IMG/VR virus record: IMGVR_UViG_3300045988_179945 | Span: 1 to 64,000 of that record | Source: a virus | DNA length: 64,000 nucleotides | Direction: 5' to 3' (one strand) | Part shown: piece after piece, positions 2,128-55,840 of the stretch | Layout: each line of letters starts with the position of its first letter | Numbering within the stretch: the stretch's first letter is position 1 | The notes under the pieces: model-generated | Database searches by the model: none | What the model was told of the DNA's origin: nothing | What the model saw: only the letters and a program-made list of their open reading frames with translations | Position numbers and translations under genes: made by a program

Positions 2128-2149
2128 TTGTGTGGACAGTTCCAGTATA
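2128..2149 (-). promoter_or_regulatory. conserved promoter/operator motif copy (variant TTGTGTGGACAGTTCCAGTATA on + strand)
   Basis: one of at least 15 copies of the TATACTGGAATTGTTCACACAA element; 35-60 nt upstream of RBS and ATG. Confidence 0.7.
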
Positions 2150-2217
2150 TCATATAAATGACAAAAACCTAAAACCAGCACACTCCCTGCGTAAAACGGC
2201 GTAAATCCTTGCCGCAG

Positions 2218-2475
2218 TCAGCAGCAGTATTCGTTGACTGTGTTGACCAGTTCGCTCATGCTCATGCCGTACACGTCGCTGTGGCGGTGGAAGATGCTTT
2301 TGGTGAAGAGCCTTTTTTGCATGATGTCGCGGGCTTCGGCGCTTTGTGCGAGTTTTACGCTTTCGGGGAATGTGCCTGTGGGGTTGTCGTTGATTTGTTT
2401 TGCGTATTCGACTGCTTGGGCTTTGGGCATTTTCTTGACGTTTATTGCGCCGCCGATGTAGTGGATTGCGTACAT
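2218..2475 (-). CDS. hypothetical protein (85 aa)
   Basis: ATG at 2473-2475 with AAGGAG 9 nt upstream; the upstream part of the annotated ORF is just the motif translated (LYWNCSHK). Confidence 0.6.
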   Translation of the reverse strand: MYAIHYIGGAINVKKMPKAQAVEYAKQINDNPTGTFPESVKLAQSAEARDIMQKRLFTKSIFHRHSDVYGMSMSELVNTVNEYCC

Positions 2476-2506
2476 GTTGTGTGCTCCTTGGTTTTCTCGA
2501 CCTTGT

Positions 2507-2528
2507 TTGTGTGAACAATTCCAATATA
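2507..2528 (-). promoter_or_regulatory. conserved promoter/operator motif copy
   Basis: TTGTGTGAACAATTCCAATATA on + strand. Confidence 0.75.
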
Positions 2529-2639
2529 ACACAAGTTGGAGTAAAGTACAACGCAAACCAAAAACGAAGACGCAATCCCCGCCCATACGAAAAAAGGAAT
2601 GCGCCCACCGGTTTCCCTGCGGGCGCATTCCCCATGCTT

Positions 2640-2948
2640 TTAGTTCAGAAGGCCGGAGCGATACAGAATCCTGCGGATATTGATATTGTGAACGAAAGCG
2701 GTGTCAGGCTGTCCAACGAAGTCGGCAAGCTGCTCGTCGGAACACGTCTCGTCAACGACGTCATCCAAAACCACCTCAGTCGGAGAGTCGAACATCCTAC
2801 AGCCAACGCCGTCATGCCCCTCAGTGTGCTCAAACAAGGCGAAGTAGGTCATGTTCTCGTCCGCAACACGCAACATGACATAGGAGGTATTGCCGTTGTG
2901 GAAGATGTTGTAGTCTGCTGCGCCGAATCGTGTGAAATATTCGTTCAT
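2640..2948 (-). CDS. hypothetical protein (102 aa)
   Basis: second ATG after the motif, GAAAGAG RBS; ORF-track start lies inside the motif translation. Confidence 0.55.
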   Translation of the reverse strand: MNEYFTRFGAADYNIFHNGNTSYVMLRVADENMTYFALFEHTEGHDGVGCRMFDSPTEVVLDDVVDETCSDEQLADFVGQPDTAFVHNINIRRILYRSGLLN

Positions 2949-2967
2949 TTTGGCTCTTTCCCTCATA

Positions 2968-2990
2968 TTTGTGTGAACAATTCCAGTATA
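2968..2990 (-). promoter_or_regulatory. conserved promoter/operator motif copy
   Basis: TTTGTGTGAACAATTCCAGTATA on + strand. Confidence 0.75.
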
Positions 2991-3078
2991 GCATATTTGA
3001 GAGAAAGAGCAAAAACACAAAAAACAAAAAGCCGCGCAAACGCAAAAAGCATCCACACGACTTGGGAATTTTTCCCCA

Positions 3079-3378
3079 CTACTGGTCGAAGTCCGACGGT
3101 TCACCATTGACGTAGTTTAAAAACTGGTCGAAGGCATATTGCGCGGTGTCCTCATAACGGCTTGGCTTCGGCTGCGCGTTCTTTTCCCGCTCTTCCTGCT
3201 CTATCAACTGGTCTATTTGGCTTTGTTCATTGCGGTGTTGCCACGCGAGAGGCTCGTTGCCTTGGGCTAGGTTCTCATACACCGTGTATTCGTGCCCGCG
3301 ATAGTTGTAAACGAGATAGACCATATGGGCGTCGTATCCGTGCCCGTGGTATTTTCTAACGAATGTCGCTTTTCGCAT
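3079..3378 (-). CDS. hypothetical protein (99 aa)
   Basis: ORF with AGAGGGG RBS; no motif of its own, probably co-transcribed with 3470-3793. Confidence 0.5.
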   Translation of the reverse strand: MRKATFVRKYHGHGYDAHMVYLVYNYRGHEYTVYENLAQGNEPLAWQHRNEQSQIDQLIEQEEREKNAQPKPSRYEDTAQYAFDQFLNYVNGEPSDFDQ

Positions 3379-53316: not shown

Positions 53317-54147
53317 ATGCCAAGCCAAGCAACAATCCTCGTCCAACGCGGCCTCGTCAAAGCCGAAACAGCCACACAAAAAGACTGGCAGACCATCGAC
53401 AGTCTTCGAGACAAAAGATTCAGCCTCCCACTCGAATGGGAGCGAATCCAACAAATTCTCACCAATCATCCGAGCATCCGCCCATATCTATACCTCTCAA
53501 CAGGATTAGACGGACTCGTACTGCTCAACACAGACACGGGAGAAACCGCAAGCGCCCAACCCCTCATATTCGAAATCCTCTCAAACGAGAACGACACCAT
53601 GTTCCAAATGGTCGAACAATACGTTTGCAGATGGGATGAAACCACACCCACGAAAACCCTCATACGGCAAGGCAGAATAGACGAAGCCAAACAGCAGATA
53701 GAACATGCCACGATGTTAGCGCCGACAGCCCTGATGGAACTCGTCTACCAGCTCGTCCCATGGAGGGAACTGGCAGACGGGCAGTACCAGCGCTTGACGG
53801 CGTTGAATGTCAGAAAGAACGAGGAGTATCCCACACGCCAATTCGACAGGCATCTGGTCAGATTGCTCCGGCAGACCAAGCCTTGCGTTGGGGGAGAAGG
53901 GTCGTTGGAGAGGACGTTCGACAAGCCCATAACAGTGTATAGGGGTGAAATCGACAAGAGCGTGCATTTTGGTTTGAGTTGGACGACCAGCCTGAACGTG
54001 GCCCAAGGGTTCGCGGAACGATTCGGCAAGGAAGGAACCGTATATTCGACCGTCCTCAAACCCGAAGAAATATTGGCGGCCTATGCCAACGATGGTGAAC
54101 AGGAGGTTCTTGCCAAGGTTGACGCAAGCCGCGTGGAAGTGGTTTAG
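53317..54147 (+). CDS. hypothetical protein with ADP-ribosyltransferase-like (R-S-E) C-terminal motifs
   Basis: VYRGE ... SWTTSL ... GEQEVL in R / STS / [EQ]xE order and spacing. Confidence 0.45.
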   Translation: MPSQATILVQRGLVKAETATQKDWQTIDSLRDKRFSLPLEWERIQQILTNHPSIRPYLYLSTGLDGLVLLNTDTGETASAQPLIFEILSNENDTMFQMVEQYVCRWDETTPTKTLIRQGRIDEAKQQIEHATMLAPTALMELVYQLVPWRELADGQYQRLTALNVRKNEEYPTRQFDRHLVRLLRQTKPCVGGEGSLERTFDKPITVYRGEIDKSVHFGLSWTTSLNVAQGFAERFGKEGTVYSTVLKPEEILAAYANDGEQEVLAKVDASRVEVV

Positions 54148-54175
54148 GGGTGGCGTGTCACATATTTTCACATGG

Positions 54176-54199
54176 TATACTGGAATTGTTCACATAAAG
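54176..54199 (+). promoter_or_regulatory. conserved promoter motif copy, orphan (no gene; points into 3' end of a convergent gene)
   Basis: TATACTGGAATTGTTCACATAAAG plus AAAGGAG RBS plus TTG-initiated 13-codon ORF. Confidence 0.6.
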
Positions 54200-54227
54200 A
54201 AGTTCTTAAAGGAGACTAAATTGACTG

Positions 54228-55301
54228 TCACCACATATTCCCATGGGAATCCATCCCTGTAGTAATAGACCCATCTGGGTTGATGTTGTCCTTGGTGATG
54301 GGAGCGAAACCCCCTCCCATAGAGTCCTTATCATTCTTCCAATCCCAAGTGCCACCAGTAGATGTTCCACCGCTGACAGAGCCTCCTGAAGAGGAGCCGG
54401 TGTTCGAATACGATGGGGCGGACTGGCTCGTCCTTCCGGAATACGAGCCGCCTACGTTCGGATATGCGTAACCGGAATAACCGCCTGACGGGGTGCCTAC
54501 AGACTGGGCTTGAGCCTGAGCCTGTTGCGCCTGTTCCTGAGCTTGCTTCTGCGCGTCGGCCTGAGCCTTGGCGTTCTTGGAATCGTTCACGGACTTCACG
54601 GCCTTGGAGAGCGTGTCATTGGCGGCGGTCAACGATTTCACGTCAGCCTTCTTGTCGCTACTGGTCTTCTTGGCGTTGTCGATGGCGGTTTTCAGGCTTT
54701 CGCGGGTCTTGTTGTCCTGTACCTTGCCTTCGGAATCCTTGTACAGGTTTTCCGCGTCGGTAATGGTCTTGTCGAGAGCAGCTTTCGCATCCTTGACCTG
54801 CTTGGCGGTCTTGGACGCCTCCACCCCGCGCATGGCCTTGCCGATGGCGTTGATGGAATCGTCAGCTTCGGTCATGTCATTGGAGATGATGGTTTTGGCC
54901 TTGGATATGCTCCGCAGATTCCACTTGGCGACGTTTCCGACGTCCGGAATGCCCTTCCGGGTTTCACTGGTCTTGACGCTCTTGTTCAACGAGTCCAACA
55001 CGGTCTTGTCAAGCACGTCCGACTCCTTCGTGGCCTTGACAAGGGATTGCGCTTCCGCAATCTTCTTCACAAGCTTCGAATCAGACTCCTTGGCCGACTC
55101 AACCCGAGACTCGTAGGAACCATACGCACTGTTCGACGCATACGCGTAGCCACCAACACCAGCGAGGACTACGATTGCCGCGATGGTGCTGGCGATGATG
55201 ACTGTCTTTTTGCTTGGCTTTTTCTTCTTGTTCTCGTTTTCCTCATCCAAGTCAAGTGGGGAGATGGTCTGGGTCTCCTCAAGGTCTTCGTTCTTTTCCA
55301 T
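54228..55301 (-). CDS. membrane-anchored coiled-coil protein with Gly/Ser-rich C-terminus (357 aa)
   Basis: AAGGAG RBS; N-terminal TM; Lys-rich helical repeats. Confidence 0.6.
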   Translation of the reverse strand: MEKNEDLEETQTISPLDLDEENENKKKKPSKKTVIIASTIAAIVVLAGVGGYAYASNSAYGSYESRVESAKESDSKLVKKIAEAQSLVKATKESDVLDKTVLDSLNKSVKTSETRKGIPDVGNVAKWNLRSISKAKTIISNDMTEADDSINAIGKAMRGVEASKTAKQVKDAKAALDKTITDAENLYKDSEGKVQDNKTRESLKTAIDNAKKTSSDKKADVKSLTAANDTLSKAVKSVNDSKNAKAQADAQKQAQEQAQQAQAQAQSVGTPSGGYSGYAYPNVGGSYSGRTSQSAPSYSNTGSSSGGSVSGGTSTGGTWDWKNDKDSMGGGFAPITKDNINPDGSITTGMDSHGNMW

Positions 55302-55369
55302 TGTTTTTTGCTCCTTCGTTTTTCTGATTTCGATTTTCCCATGGGGGGTAGGCGAACACTACTCTTTGA

Positions 55370-55391
55370 TGTGGACAAGCCCACTATAGCA
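55370..55391 (-). promoter_or_regulatory. degenerate promoter motif copy upstream of 54228-55301
   Basis: TGTGGACAAGCCCACTATAGCA on + strand. Confidence 0.4.
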
Positions 55392-55451
55392 CAAGATTGG
55401 GTGTGTTGCAATATTTACGCAAGGCAGTGAGTGTAGGAAAAATACGAAAAT

Positions 55452-55793
55452 TCAGCAATACCAACGCCTACGACGCTGATAGACGACAGGCTCATCCCAA
55501 TCCTCGTCCATTCTACCACCGTTGTATGCGACTACGGCGGCACGCAACGCGTCTCGAATCTCCGTCTCACTCCCGTAATCCGTGTACCAGTCGTCCTCAA
55601 TCCAACGCCAATCACACCATCGACGTGCGGGAACATGCGGATTCCTTTTTCTCGAATACGCGTAGCCTTTCAAGTCGATTTCCTCGAAGGAATATCCCCA
55701 ACCGAAAGTGCGGGTGCGGGAGAAATCGCATGAGCGAGCGTCCTCCTCGATGACGGAATACGGTCTGTCCTTGAATGTCCTCGACAACGGCAT
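55452..55793 (-). CDS. Trp-rich hypothetical protein (113 aa)
   Basis: ORF only; RBS spacing is poor. Confidence 0.25.
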   Translation of the reverse strand: MPLSRTFKDRPYSVIEEDARSCDFSRTRTFGWGYSFEEIDLKGYAYSRKRNPHVPARRWCDWRWIEDDWYTDYGSETEIRDALRAAVVAYNGGRMDEDWDEPVVYQRRRRWYC

Positions 55794-55819
55794 CTCCTTC
55801 CGATAGGTTACTATCCAAT

Positions 55820-55840
55820 GATAGTGGAACTGTCCACAAA
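55820..55840 (+). promoter_or_regulatory. degenerate promoter motif copy upstream of giant surface protein gene
   Basis: GATAGTGGAACTGTCCACAAA; a TTGACT-N16-TATATA sigma70-like promoter lies further downstream. Confidence 0.4.

Follow-up and report, generated by a model that had tools for sequence, protein, structure and literature searches.

A published counterpart of the motif analysed here is carried by the conjugative Bifidobacterium megaplasmid pMP7017, for which Dineen et al. 2024 (PMC10832533) described a 34-bp motif, TATACTGAATATGTCCACATAAAA, at 19 promoters, where it overlaps the -10 element and is found among highly transcribed genes. This motif, which bifidobacterial chromosomes lack, was called a likely transcription-factor site and was read as defining a plasmid regulon (PMC10832533), the same idea of coordinated regulation that the initial annotation had put forward for the present DNA. 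We count 24-28 copies of TATACTG-N5-GTCCACATAAA in pMP7017. The window, that is, the whole stretch of 64,000 nucleotides analysed, is, judging from its proteins (30-66% identity to those of pMP7017) and the shared gene order, a distant relative of this megaplasmid. Its motif is homologous to the pMP7017 motif and, on this comparison, is best described as a lineage version of a promoter module common to the pMP7017 family; the motif family is thus already published. The anatomy of the module, the box at the predicted start, the match to a DnaA box and the cassette amplification are new here.

Allowing up to three mismatches, the 17-mer GGAATTGTTCACACAAA is matched 13 times in the window, compared with 0.24 expected matches, and none of 100 shuffles reached that number. 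Eight matches lie on the minus strand (2127-2143, 2506, 2968, 3818, 4834, 6389, 7228 and 8059) and five on the plus strand (14407, 38939, 43439, 53288 and 54182), within 1-6 nt of the positions at which a recurring motif of about 23 nt had been annotated. Besides these close copies, approximately nine degenerate copies are present. The repeated 23-base sequence is therefore confirmed as real, and it marks about 20 gene starts. Four of the degenerate copies proposed initially, at 9981, 31322, 55370 and 55820, were recovered; the copies annotated at 25695 and 39402 have lost the box, and three further ones, 14305-14327 (-), 45258-45280 (-) and 45283-45305 (+), had been overlooked. The copies are as follows.

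2127-2149 (-), motif copy TATACTGGAACTGTCCACACAAA, 5' of ORF 1730-2092
2506-2528 (-), motif copy TATATTGGAATTGTTCACACAAA, 5' of ORF 2218-2475
2968-2990 (-), exact majority 23-mer TATACTGGAATTGTTCACACAAA, 5' of ORF 2640-2948
3818-3840 (-), exact majority 23-mer, 5' of ORF 3470-3793
4834-4856 (-), motif copy with TATGCT as its -10, 5' of HEAT-repeat ORF 3885-4811
6389-6411 (-), motif copy TATACTGGAAATGTTCACATAAA, 5' of ORF 6054-6362
7228-7250 (-), exact majority 23-mer, 5' of the operon 6808-7197 / HTH_17 6611-6790 / RHH 6457-6606
8059-8081 (-), exact majority 23-mer, 5' of ORF 7543-8031
9978-10000 (-), degenerate copy TATAGTGGGTTCGCCCACAAAAA, 5' of SPFH/Band 7 gene 8583-9962
14305-14327 (-), degenerate copy TAAGCTGGACGCGCCCACATACA, 5' of ORF 14046-14270
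14401-14423 (+), motif copy TATACTGGAATCGTCCACAAAAA, 5' of small membrane ORF 14470-14646
25694-25714 (+), weak relic TTATAACTGGAAACAGCCGTG retaining the -10 and GGAA, box lost, 5' of 25777-26121
31322-31344 (+), degenerate copy CACTATGGTTTCGTCCACACCGA, 5' of parA 31367-32029
38933-38955 (+), motif copy TATACTGGAATTGTTCACGCAAA, 5' of 38986-39357
39401-39423 (+), degenerate copy TTATACTGGAATCAGCCGCAAAC retaining the -10 and GGAA, box lost, 5' of 39439-39780
43433-43455 (+), motif copy TATAATGGGATTGTTCACACAAA, 5' of 43483-44205
45258-45280 (-), degenerate copy CATACTGGACACGCTCACAAAAT, 5' of HTH gene 44669-45040 and ImmA/IrrE peptidase gene 44244-44636
45283-45305 (+), degenerate copy TAAAATAAAAACGTCCACACACA, 5' of replication-initiator-like gene 45346-46965
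53282-53304 (+), motif copy TATACTGGGATTGTTCACACAAA, 5' of 53317-54147
54176-54198 (+), motif copy TATACTGGAATTGTTCACATAAA, with no more than a 13-codon mini-ORF behind it
55366-55388 (-), degenerate copy TATAGTGGGCTTGTCCACATCAA, 5' of 54228-55301
55820-55842 (+), degenerate copy GATAGTGGAACTGTCCACAAATT, 5' of a giant surface-protein ORF starting near 56072

The pMP7017 orthologues of 38986-39357 and 39439-39780 have motif copies of their own, at 35196 and 36118, respectively. Replication-type genes (dnaB at 10014-11354) lie downstream of ORF 14046-14270, also behind the copy at 14305-14327 (-). A 10-bp perfect inverted repeat at 45245-45274 overlaps the copy at 45258-45280 (-).

An RBS and a start codon are found within 75 nt of the motif in 15 of 17 copies, compared with 15% of random positions, and the motif ends 13-46 nt before the start codon. 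The copies are oriented towards genes, as stated initially, but the claim that every copy precedes one needs correcting at 54176, behind which there is no real gene; the broader description of a plasmid-specific, promoter-associated motif over the -10 and start region of many genes stands. The motif is an island of conservation, with a mean pairwise identity among copies of 0.755 inside it versus 0.28 upstream and 0.32 downstream. The pMP7017 form, GyCCACA, is retained by most degenerate copies before identifiable backbone or surface genes (those for Band 7, parA, the rep-like protein, 54228-55301 and the giant surface protein); tblastn to pMP7017 matched only part of the genes preceded by such copies. 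Four of them, 9978-10000 (-), 31322-31344 (+), 55366-55388 (-) and 55820-55842 (+), consist of a -10-like hexamer, 6 nt and then GyCCACA. ORFans without a pMP7017 homologue are mostly preceded by the identical version TTGTTCACACAAA. Identical 23-mers before unrelated accessory ORFans look like the recent amplification of one cassette and not like stronger constraint.

TATACT, or a hexamer one base away from it, stands before each 17-mer match, with TGn just upstream of this -10 in 13 of 17 copies. The module is thus composed of an extended -10 (TGnTATACT), a G and a box at fixed spacing, the distance from -10 to box being 6 nt in 257 of 280 distinct copies. TATACT itself is found in 332 of 408 distinct copies, and TATAAT is not among the listed variants. 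A conserved -35 was sought across the copies and, as the initial annotation had said, none was found, save a weak TT near -35. About 8% of the boxes have no -10; these are in gene orientation and closely precede an RBS, some of them behind terminator-like hairpins. With the G at -6, TGnTATACT would serve the host sigma-A RNA polymerase as an extended -10 promoter that needs no -35. This near-consensus element for the host enzyme speaks against a promoter for a plasmid-encoded RNA polymerase or sigma factor of the T7 or T4-late type, the phage-type promoter suggested initially. The 23-nt length, the strict asymmetry, the missing -35 and the lineage variants do resemble single-subunit RNA polymerase promoters, and the orphan boxes could be promoters as well. 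However, the annotation table of the complete 190-kb pMP7017 record has no entry for an RNA polymerase or sigma factor, six-frame searches gave a beta-prime DFDGD-type catalytic motif in no frame of the window or pMP7017, and Pfam showed no polymerase or sigma domain in the large window proteins scanned or in most other called ORFs. A dedicated polymerase is therefore largely refuted, and we consider it highly improbable.

The same promoter could also be a strong cassette without any reader, copied before newly acquired genes: an extended -10, a G-rich discriminator and a favourable initial transcribed sequence would suffice, and uniformity would reflect recent descent plus selection for strength. 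The identical 23-mers before unrelated ORFans, next to mostly diverged copies before identifiable backbone genes, are consistent with this, as is the place of the pMP7017 copies among the most highly transcribed promoters. GGGA/GGAA right after the -10 is discriminator-like, and contact of the discriminator by sigma region 1.2 supports -35-independent initiation. Nevertheless, GyCCACA is kept between lineages with 30-66% protein identity and unalignable flanks, which amounts to purifying selection from +1 to +9, a region with few base-specific contacts to RNA polymerase. The strong preference for TATACT over the host consensus TATAAT and the conservation of boxes without a -10 also run counter to a readerless cassette, which we judge quite unlikely.

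The box reads nTGTYCACA followed by YAAA; it is asymmetric and lies exactly 6 nt past the -10, at the predicted transcription start. Its core, nTGTYCACA, agrees with TTGTCCACA, the DnaA box of actinobacteria. In sites anchored only by the -10 and the trailing AA, T2, G3, T4, C6, A7, C8 and A9 are conserved (T2 78-100%, the others 93-100%), and variation is found mainly at positions 1 and 5. At most two mismatches separate 97% of 311 sites from TTGTCCACA or TTATCCACA, compared with 0.3% of random 9-mers, from which we infer that a DnaA-box match this good would arise by chance in about 0.2-1% of cases. The copy at 55366-55388 (-) contains a perfect TTGTCCACA, and pMP7017 has, at a site without a promoter, a tandem array of TTATCCACA, ATCCACA and TGTCCACA. 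A DnaA monomer binds asymmetric 9-mers; actinobacterial DnaA has been reported to bind single boxes weakly. The box types at the B. longum oriC include TTGTCCACA and TTATTCACA (PMC2430713), TTGTCCACA is the high-affinity DnaA box of Mycobacterium and Streptomyces (PMC4285127), and DnaA has a known role as a transcription factor (PMC12112137).

Our tentative preference, which we hold to be possible and somewhat short of an even chance, is a sigma-A promoter modulated by a monomeric binder, with host DnaA as the lead candidate because the box core is a DnaA box. The bound monomer would occupy the box and tune initiation at 20 or more promoters in 64 kb, with 40-60 probable for a whole plasmid; if so, plasmid gene expression would be linked to whatever state the host replication initiator is in. 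Several points weigh against DnaA. There is only one box per promoter, with no companion box from 80 bp upstream to 110 bp downstream of the -10, and dnaA is not named among the host genes that respond to plasmid carriage with altered expression, so there is no sign of DnaA titration. Most pMP7017 copies have A, not T, at box position 1. DnaA binding does not account for the conserved YAAA after the box, the C at -8 or the strict register with the -10. The preferred bases at box position 5 and directly after the box differ between lineages, with GTCCACAT as the majority variant of pMP7017-like loci and GTTCACAC as that of window-like loci; such a pattern could equally result if the box had co-evolved with a reader encoded by the plasmid.

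In that case, the box would be the operator of a dedicated plasmid-encoded DNA-binding protein at the same promoter, and its likeness to a DnaA box a coincidence or a matter of competition. The lineage-specific variants, the conserved positions beyond the DnaA box (YAAA, G at -6 and C at -8) and the restriction of the motif to this plasmid family (PMC10832533) point in this direction, and reporter assays have revealed pMP7017-encoded repressors that act in trans on other promoters, repA and repB (PMC8313286). The logic of a global regulon is like that of IncP KorA/KorB, as suggested initially, but a palindromic operator of the KorA/KorB kind does not fit an asymmetric box with only a 3-bp TGT/ACA symmetry, the left arm of which is not conserved in pMP7017. 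The stoperators of the mycobacteriophage L5 repressor, which are asymmetric, monomer-bound and orientation-specific, are mechanistically closer, and boxes without a -10, some past hairpins, that are kept while their flanks vary are stoperator-like. Regarding the protein, the Xis-like (HTH_17) and RHH genes at 6457-6790, the candidates named initially, have no homologue in pMP7017, although the motif family is present there too. An HTH and ImmA/IrrE peptidase pair is encoded by both plasmids; however, this module has its own long palindrome in both, a likelier operator for it than the dispersed box. An AAA_16 ATPase, its C-terminus winged-helix-like as judged by eye only, is conserved in pMP7017 and in relatives of the window but absent from the window. 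The window lineage contains all four combinations of the variants side by side, so there is no strict specificity switch, and the low chance of so good a DnaA-box match (about 0.2-1%) also counts against a dedicated regulator. The initial annotation also envisaged silencing; the pMP7017 copies were first noticed at genes that rank with the most highly transcribed ones when the plasmid is present, and from this high expression we infer that tight repression is unlikely in established cells and that simple repression cannot be strong there. Taken together, a dedicated regulator seems doubtful.

The downstream block might instead act as RNA, in promoter escape, mRNA stability or the recruitment of ribosomes or a protein, in a manner reminiscent of the start-associated sequences of cluster K mycobacteriophages. 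As conservation sets in at the predicted +1, all mRNAs would share the unstructured, A/C-rich 5' end GUYCACAYAAA. The N5 at -5 to -1 is less conserved, with strong conservation again from the predicted +1, and in pMP7017 it continues into the RBS (ataatcgaaagaggaaa); the position of the gene-oriented orphan boxes just before an RBS also fits. With an A content of 45%, the leaders show no structure (mean MFE -3.6 kcal/mol per 50 nt, z = -0.01), which is compatible with such a role and speaks against a structured form of the shared 5' leader proposed initially. On the other hand, the start-codon distance varies (13-46 nt) while the -10 distance is fixed, and the first two box positions precede the predicted start, even though the second of them is T in 78-82% of sites. 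Neither structure nor covariation supports an RNA element, an RNA-binding protein or complementary sRNA was not found, and the DnaA-box match is left to chance. We therefore regard an RNA-level role as unlikely. A single-stranded DNA promoter was also considered, and this reading is not supported. Lastly, a transcript from 54176-54198 (+) would be antisense to the 3' end of the convergent gene 54228-55301 (-), and this arrangement is also kept in the relative L161.

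The 17-nt block GGAATTGTTCACACAAA has 13 matches with up to three mismatches in the window, against 0.24 expected from shuffled sequences. Further members are recovered with a position matrix and a relaxed pattern, and the full set, with two relics, is distributed as follows.

2.1–8.1 kb, minus strand: eight of the 13 matches to the 17-mer
14.4, 38.9, 43.4, 53.3 and 54.2 kb, plus strand: the other five matches to the 17-mer
9978–10000, minus strand: member added by matrix/relaxed pattern
14305–14327, minus strand: member added by matrix/relaxed pattern
31322–31344, plus strand: member added by matrix/relaxed pattern
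45258–45280, minus strand: member added by matrix/relaxed pattern
45283–45305, plus strand: member added by matrix/relaxed pattern
55366–55388, minus strand: member added by matrix/relaxed pattern, including a perfect TTGTCCACA
55820–55842, plus strand: member added by matrix/relaxed pattern
39401 and 25694: relic copies that retain the -10 and GGAA only

The -10 hexamer is TATACT or a one-base variant in 17 of 17 window copies, 13 of which carry TGn on its 5' side. Pairwise identity among the copies is 0.755 in the motif and only 0.28 upstream and 0.32 downstream. All of the window copies lie in gene orientation, and 15 of 17 have an RBS and start codon no more than 75 nt downstream, compared with 15% of random positions. 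Thus, the repeated motif at gene starts described in the initial annotation is borne out as a biologically meaningful feature, and from this position and orientation we infer that the motif drives transcription. The claim that a gene stands behind every copy needs correction, since the copy at 54176 precedes just a 13-codon mini-ORF. This conserved mini-ORF of 13–14 codons (M/L-TVTTYSHGN...; 54176–54262, plus strand) is alone behind its motif copy and corresponds to positions 3388–3480 of L161, a relative of the window. Its transcript would converge antisense on the 3' end of the 357-aa gene at 54228–55301, a layout kept in L161, and the unit may be an antisense or small-peptide regulator. The copies at 7250 and 8081 (7251–7310 and 8082–8140, minus strand) also share an upstream stretch, AATGCTTTAAAA..GCGCTTGG.GGGAAGCTG.TTTGA, which suggests that a longer promoter stretch was duplicated locally or that the two copies have a further site in common. 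At 2930–3040 (minus strand), a 13-bp inverted repeat, GCTCTTTCTCTCA...TGAGGGAAAGAGC, flanks the copy at 2990 and links the region upstream of the -10 to the RBS; it is confined to this copy, with a DNA fold of z = -1.7.

A homologous 34-bp motif, AWAYATGY-TATACT-GAATATGTCCACATAAAAWA, is published for the Bifidobacterium conjugative megaplasmid pMP7017 (Dineen et al. 2024, Microb Biotechnol, PMC10832533). In six genes that RNA-seq shows to be highly transcribed, the motif overlaps the -10; with 13 further copies counted in, its promoters are predicted to drive 56 genes, or 24% of the coding capacity. Related megaplasmids also carry it, and bifidobacterial chromosomes lack it (PMC10832533). A literature search on the motif sequence and on pMP7017 follow-up returns no paper that names a regulator. 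In pMP7017, we count 24 copies of the 23-mer with up to five substitutions and 28 GTCCACAYA sites, 27 of the latter in gene orientation upstream of an RBS. The two motifs share their architecture and register, ATGy-TATACT-G-N5-GTyCACAyAAA, and both sit upstream of the RBS of many genes. The window motif carries the GTCCACATAAA-like block of the pMP7017 family at a fixed distance (G + N5) after the -10, and its 17-mer shares 12 of 17 bases with the published consensus block, as aligned by eye without a shift in register. Two orthologous promoters have the motif in both plasmids (window 38933 and pMP7017 35196; 39401 and 36118). Footprinting on orthologous promoters does not sharpen the motif boundaries, because the flanks are ~90% identical and divergence is too low. 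Regarding differences, the majority variant is GGAATTGTTCACACAAA in the window and GAATATGTCCACATAAA in pMP7017, the N5 stretch is more uniform in the window, and conservation extends from leader to RBS in pMP7017 but not in the window. Judged by its sequence, the window motif is a new lineage member of the published family, which it matches on the -10, the block spacing and the replicon. The initial interpretation agrees in substance with that published for pMP7017.

Regarding the replicon, Pfam assigns no family to most window ORFs. The recognisable genes encode DnaB, ParA, a second ParA/CobQ-like ATPase, RepA_C and a replication-initiator-like protein, and further elements are an HTH and ImmA/IrrE peptidase pair, IS607-type and IS200/IS605-type elements and a giant wall-anchored surface protein whose frame continues beyond the window. 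This gene set is typical of Gram-positive conjugative megaplasmids. By tblastn, 37 window ORFs match the 190-kb pMP7017 (Bifidobacterium breve) at 24–66% identity, mostly >30%, and the backbone block 20120–39780 is syntenic with pMP7017 35–53 kb, the proteins of the shared backbone being 30–66% identical. The exact 20-mer of the motif is present in human-gut metagenome contigs (66 stretches, four of them 219–224 kb long) and in IMG/VR contigs up to 217 kb long (65 stretches). The exact ParA of the window occurs in 303 blocks of the contig collection, where the blocks read are human-gut-type assemblies; it is present once in an NCBI assembly and on no contig >200 kb. Therefore, from these distributions and the synteny, the window is part of a ~220-kb plasmid lineage of the pMP7017 family, and the chromosomal repeat considered in the initial annotation is set aside. 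This lineage is represented by gut metagenome and IMG/VR contigs only. Megablast of 25 kb against phages and plasmids gives no near relative, its only leads being a 72% match to pMP7017 and 78.5% over 126 bases of Citrobacter dnaB, and a degenerate pattern (18 positions, 15 specified bases) searched against genome_contigs returns single chance matches in unrelated phyla (loci L001–L120), which are noise. Contigs of the megaplasmid family of 100–217 kb are filed as viral genomes in IMG/VR (loci L187–L251 and L256–L342). They combine phage-like replication genes with a conjugative-plasmid backbone, and their viral filing is probably a misclassification or reflects a phage-plasmid grey zone.

Conserved across both lineages are TG at -15/-14, TATACT, G at -6, a looser 5 nt and then G-T-Y-C-A-C-A-Y-A-A-A. 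At hexamer position -8, C or G is strongly preferred over the host consensus A, and no -35 is conserved across the lineages except a weak TT. Block and -10 are separated by 6 nt in 257 of 280 distinct copies from relatives and in each of the 11 exact-block window copies, whereas the start codon lies at a variable distance of 13 to 46 nt from the block. With the usual promoter geometry, the first G of the block would be the transcription start, and a pyrimidine nearly always precedes it. No -10 can be recognised at about 8% of blocks; some of these blocks lie after terminator-like hairpins and before an RBS, with the block conserved and the adjacent bases differing. The block would open the transcript, and it could act at the RNA level, a role that we consider quite unlikely. 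The leaders are A-rich and unstructured, and no RNA or ssDNA structure common to the copies is found at the motif (DNA folds of four copies, z = -1.73, -0.19, +0.90 and +0.55). The Rfam search returns a TnpB-associated RNA only.

The evidence best supports a host sigma-A promoter of the extended -10 type, in which a monomeric protein occupies a box at the start site. No dyad symmetry holds across copies beyond 3-bp arms, TGT..ACA, and in the pMP7017 copies the left arm varies and the right side is invariant. A KorA/KorB-type palindromic operator is not upheld by arms of this kind. Like the global regulons of IncP (RK2) KorA/KorB and of IncW (R388), the motif places a short putative operator in plasmid-wide promoters, which would allow coordinated control of backbone and establishment genes. 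However, Kor operators are dimer-bound palindromes at variable positions in canonical -35/-10 promoters, whereas the motif box is asymmetric and in strict register with the -10. The palindromes GTGG-N6-CCAC and TGGA-N4-TCCA fit a few degenerate copies and fail across pMP7017, and look-alikes of the LexA box and of sigma-54, ECF sigma, PhoP and MtrA sites show wrong spacing or a poor fit by eye. Stoperators, the sites of gp71 of mycobacteriophage L5, are also asymmetric sites in many copies across one actinobacterial mobile element; they are ~13 bp long, are bound by a monomer, have lineage-specific variants and are oriented with transcription, as the motif is. Stoperators lie mostly inside transcription units, are not fused to a -10 at fixed spacing and serve a known repressor that silences the prophage. 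In contrast, 92% of the boxes here are fused to a -10 at fixed spacing rather than lying mostly away from promoters, the pMP7017 motif promoters are highly active, and no repressor is identified.

The alternative of a phage-type dedicated promoter finds a parallel in T7, where a conserved sequence of ~23 nt likewise stands at many gene starts. However, T7 differs in that no polymerase gene is found on this replicon: the pMP7017 annotation table lists no RNA polymerase or sigma factor, a search for the beta-prime motif gives nothing, and no such Pfam domain occurs in the scanned window ORFs. This part of the initial proposal is therefore abandoned. The F-plasmid promoter Frpo is tied, like the motif, to small establishment/anti-defence-type genes. 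Frpo is a long imperfect hairpin that rebuilds a -35/-10 in ssDNA on the transferred strand only; a single-strand promoter of this type is rejected, because the motif forms no shared hairpin in the four copies folded (z from -1.7 to +0.9) and its copies lie on both strands.

The Xis-like HTH_17 and RHH genes, named earlier as possible regulators, and their neighbouring ORFs (6457–7197 in all) have no pMP7017 homologue even at E = 1 and lose their candidacy. The HTH gene (44669–45040) and ImmA/IrrE gene (Peptidase_M78, 44244–44636), both on the minus strand, are conserved as a pair in both plasmids and diverge from the replication-initiator-like gene. Such a pair is the classic derepression module of mobile elements. 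Its promoter in the window (45245–45274) carries a perfect 10-bp inverted repeat, GGACACGCTC-N10-GAGCGTGTCC, and that of pMP7017 a different, 17-bp palindrome. Since a separate long palindrome stands at its promoter in both plasmids, the module is unlikely to read the box, and the palindrome is the likelier operator of the pair. An AAA_16 ATPase of pMP7017, DnaA-like in its authors' annotation, is 52% identical in the window lineage and is a candidate regulator only. It is not supported as a DnaA paralogue: Pfam gives no Bac_DnaA match, and its best solved-structure matches are other ATPases, with DnaA non-significant (E = 0.08). Overall, we regard a dedicated plasmid factor as an unlikely reader of the box.

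Aligning the sites on the -10 and the trailing AA only, we find T/A-T-G-T-Y-C-A-C-A at the nine bases from -2 to +7. Positions 3, 4, 6, 7, 8 and 9 of this box are conserved in 93–100% and position 2 is T in 78–82%, with variation mainly at positions 1 and 5. Of 311 sites, 97% have at most two mismatches to TTGTCCACA or TTATCCACA, compared with 0.3% of random 9-mers; in the window, eight of 11 anchored sites are one mismatch from either, and 10 of the 15 strict TT(A/G/T)TNCACA boxes fall within motif copies. In Mycobacterium and Streptomyces, TTGTCCACA serves as the high-affinity DnaA box (PMC4285127), and the box types at the oriC of B. longum include TTGTCCACA and TTATTCACA (PMC2430713). The types TTGTCCACA and TT(A/G)TTCACA occur at that origin, and the window majority, TTGTTCACA, combines the TTGTCCACA and TTATTCACA types. 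DnaA binds asymmetric 9-mers as a monomer, and the motif box is an asymmetric 9-mer. DnaA is also a known transcription factor at promoters (PMC12112137). Both properties fit the asymmetry and size of the block. No DnaA domain IV is found in either the window or pMP7017, so the reader would be host DnaA. In the pMP7017 record (L253, 60340–60400), DnaA-box-like TTATCCACA, ATCCACA and TGTCCACA stand in tandem with no -10, between the dnaB-module genes and the next ORF.

Several features argue against the DnaA reading. DnaA boxes at origins and DnaA-regulated promoters are typically clustered, whereas the motif has one box per promoter: in all but four of 484 copies, the stretch from 80 bp before the -10 to 110 bp after it has no second strict box. 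The motif further differs in its strict register with the -10, in an extra conserved YAAA after the box and in position 1, which is often A in pMP7017; neither the YAAA nor the fixed register is explained by DnaA. The high transcription of the pMP7017 motif copies also weighs against it, as does the lack of any sign of DnaA titration, dnaA not being mentioned in the published host expression tables for pMP7017 carriage. Considering both sides, the start-site box may be a DnaA box, a new, specific and tentative identification to which we give somewhat less than an even chance. It is rather doubtful that a single host DnaA box would mark the transcription start of dozens of promoters in Bifidobacterium megaplasmids of ~190–220 kb and that host DnaA would act there as global regulator of plasmid expression. 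If so, plasmid genes for establishment, anti-defence and maintenance would be tied to the replication cycle of the host with no plasmid-encoded master regulator, the plasmid would conversely carry a dispersed set of DnaA-binding sites, and the family would clearly exemplify a plasmid that links its entire transcription programme to the replication initiator of its host.

The variants of the block differ between lineages. Loci like pMP7017 have almost only GTCCACAT, and those of the window lineage mostly GTTCACAC, with all four combinations occurring. GyCCACA is kept in most degenerate window copies before genes of identifiable function (the Band 7 gene, parA, the rep-like gene, the gene at 54228–55301 and the surface protein), and the identical TTGTTCACACAAA version stands before window ORFans without a pMP7017 homologue. 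The simplest reading of these patterns is that one promoter cassette was recently copied into the accessory region, not that reader specificity switched, and co-evolution with a plasmid factor is possible. That the motif is an amplified promoter cassette with no reader at all appears quite unlikely to us.

The published relative pMP7017 is found in about 10% of microbiome samples, and megaplasmids of its family are frequent in bifidobacteria of the human gut. A large share of their genes, many small establishment/anti-defence-type ORFans among them, appears to be driven by one short module. Knowing the reader of this module would explain how a conjugative element of such size controls the cost it imposes and its passage into new hosts, and would supply a compact, strong and portable promoter for Bifidobacterium engineering.

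Lastly, the window holds features apart from the motif. The giant surface-protein ORF (56072–64000, plus strand) is one repetitive frame of >2,640 codons that runs off the window end, with an LPXTG-like LAKTG and then a hydrophobic tail at ~63944; it is 40% identical to a 2,111-aa pMP7017 protein. The shadow ORF opposite (59141–63898, minus strand; 1,585 aa, rich in V, G, L and R) is an antisense artefact. An IS607-type unit with a serine recombinase and TnpB lies at 32787–34581 (plus strand), and an RNA of the Rfam family Transposase-2 (34497–34565, 84 bits) at its tnpB end. The RepA_C gene comes directly after the parA-side gene in eight related contigs, which makes the unit an insertion in the plasmid of the window. 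The IS200/IS605-type element (41412–42991, minus strand; tnpA 42578–42991, tnpB 41412–42581) has related copies in pMP7017. Cargo of possible defence or counter-defence interest is found at 445–1479, 8583–9962, 37653–38678 and 50262–51948 and comprises an ATP-grasp (R2K-like) protein, SPFH/Band 7, a GmrSD_C/DUF1524-type nuclease with an N-terminal membrane segment predicted by eye, a protein whose Lar-like zinc-ribbon match is weak and does not reach the Pfam threshold, and an ADP-ribosylglycohydrolase. At 15132–15808 (plus strand), two small paralogous ORFs with a C-R-N-G-W motif stand side by side; they belong to no known family and have homologues at pMP7017 55215–55841.
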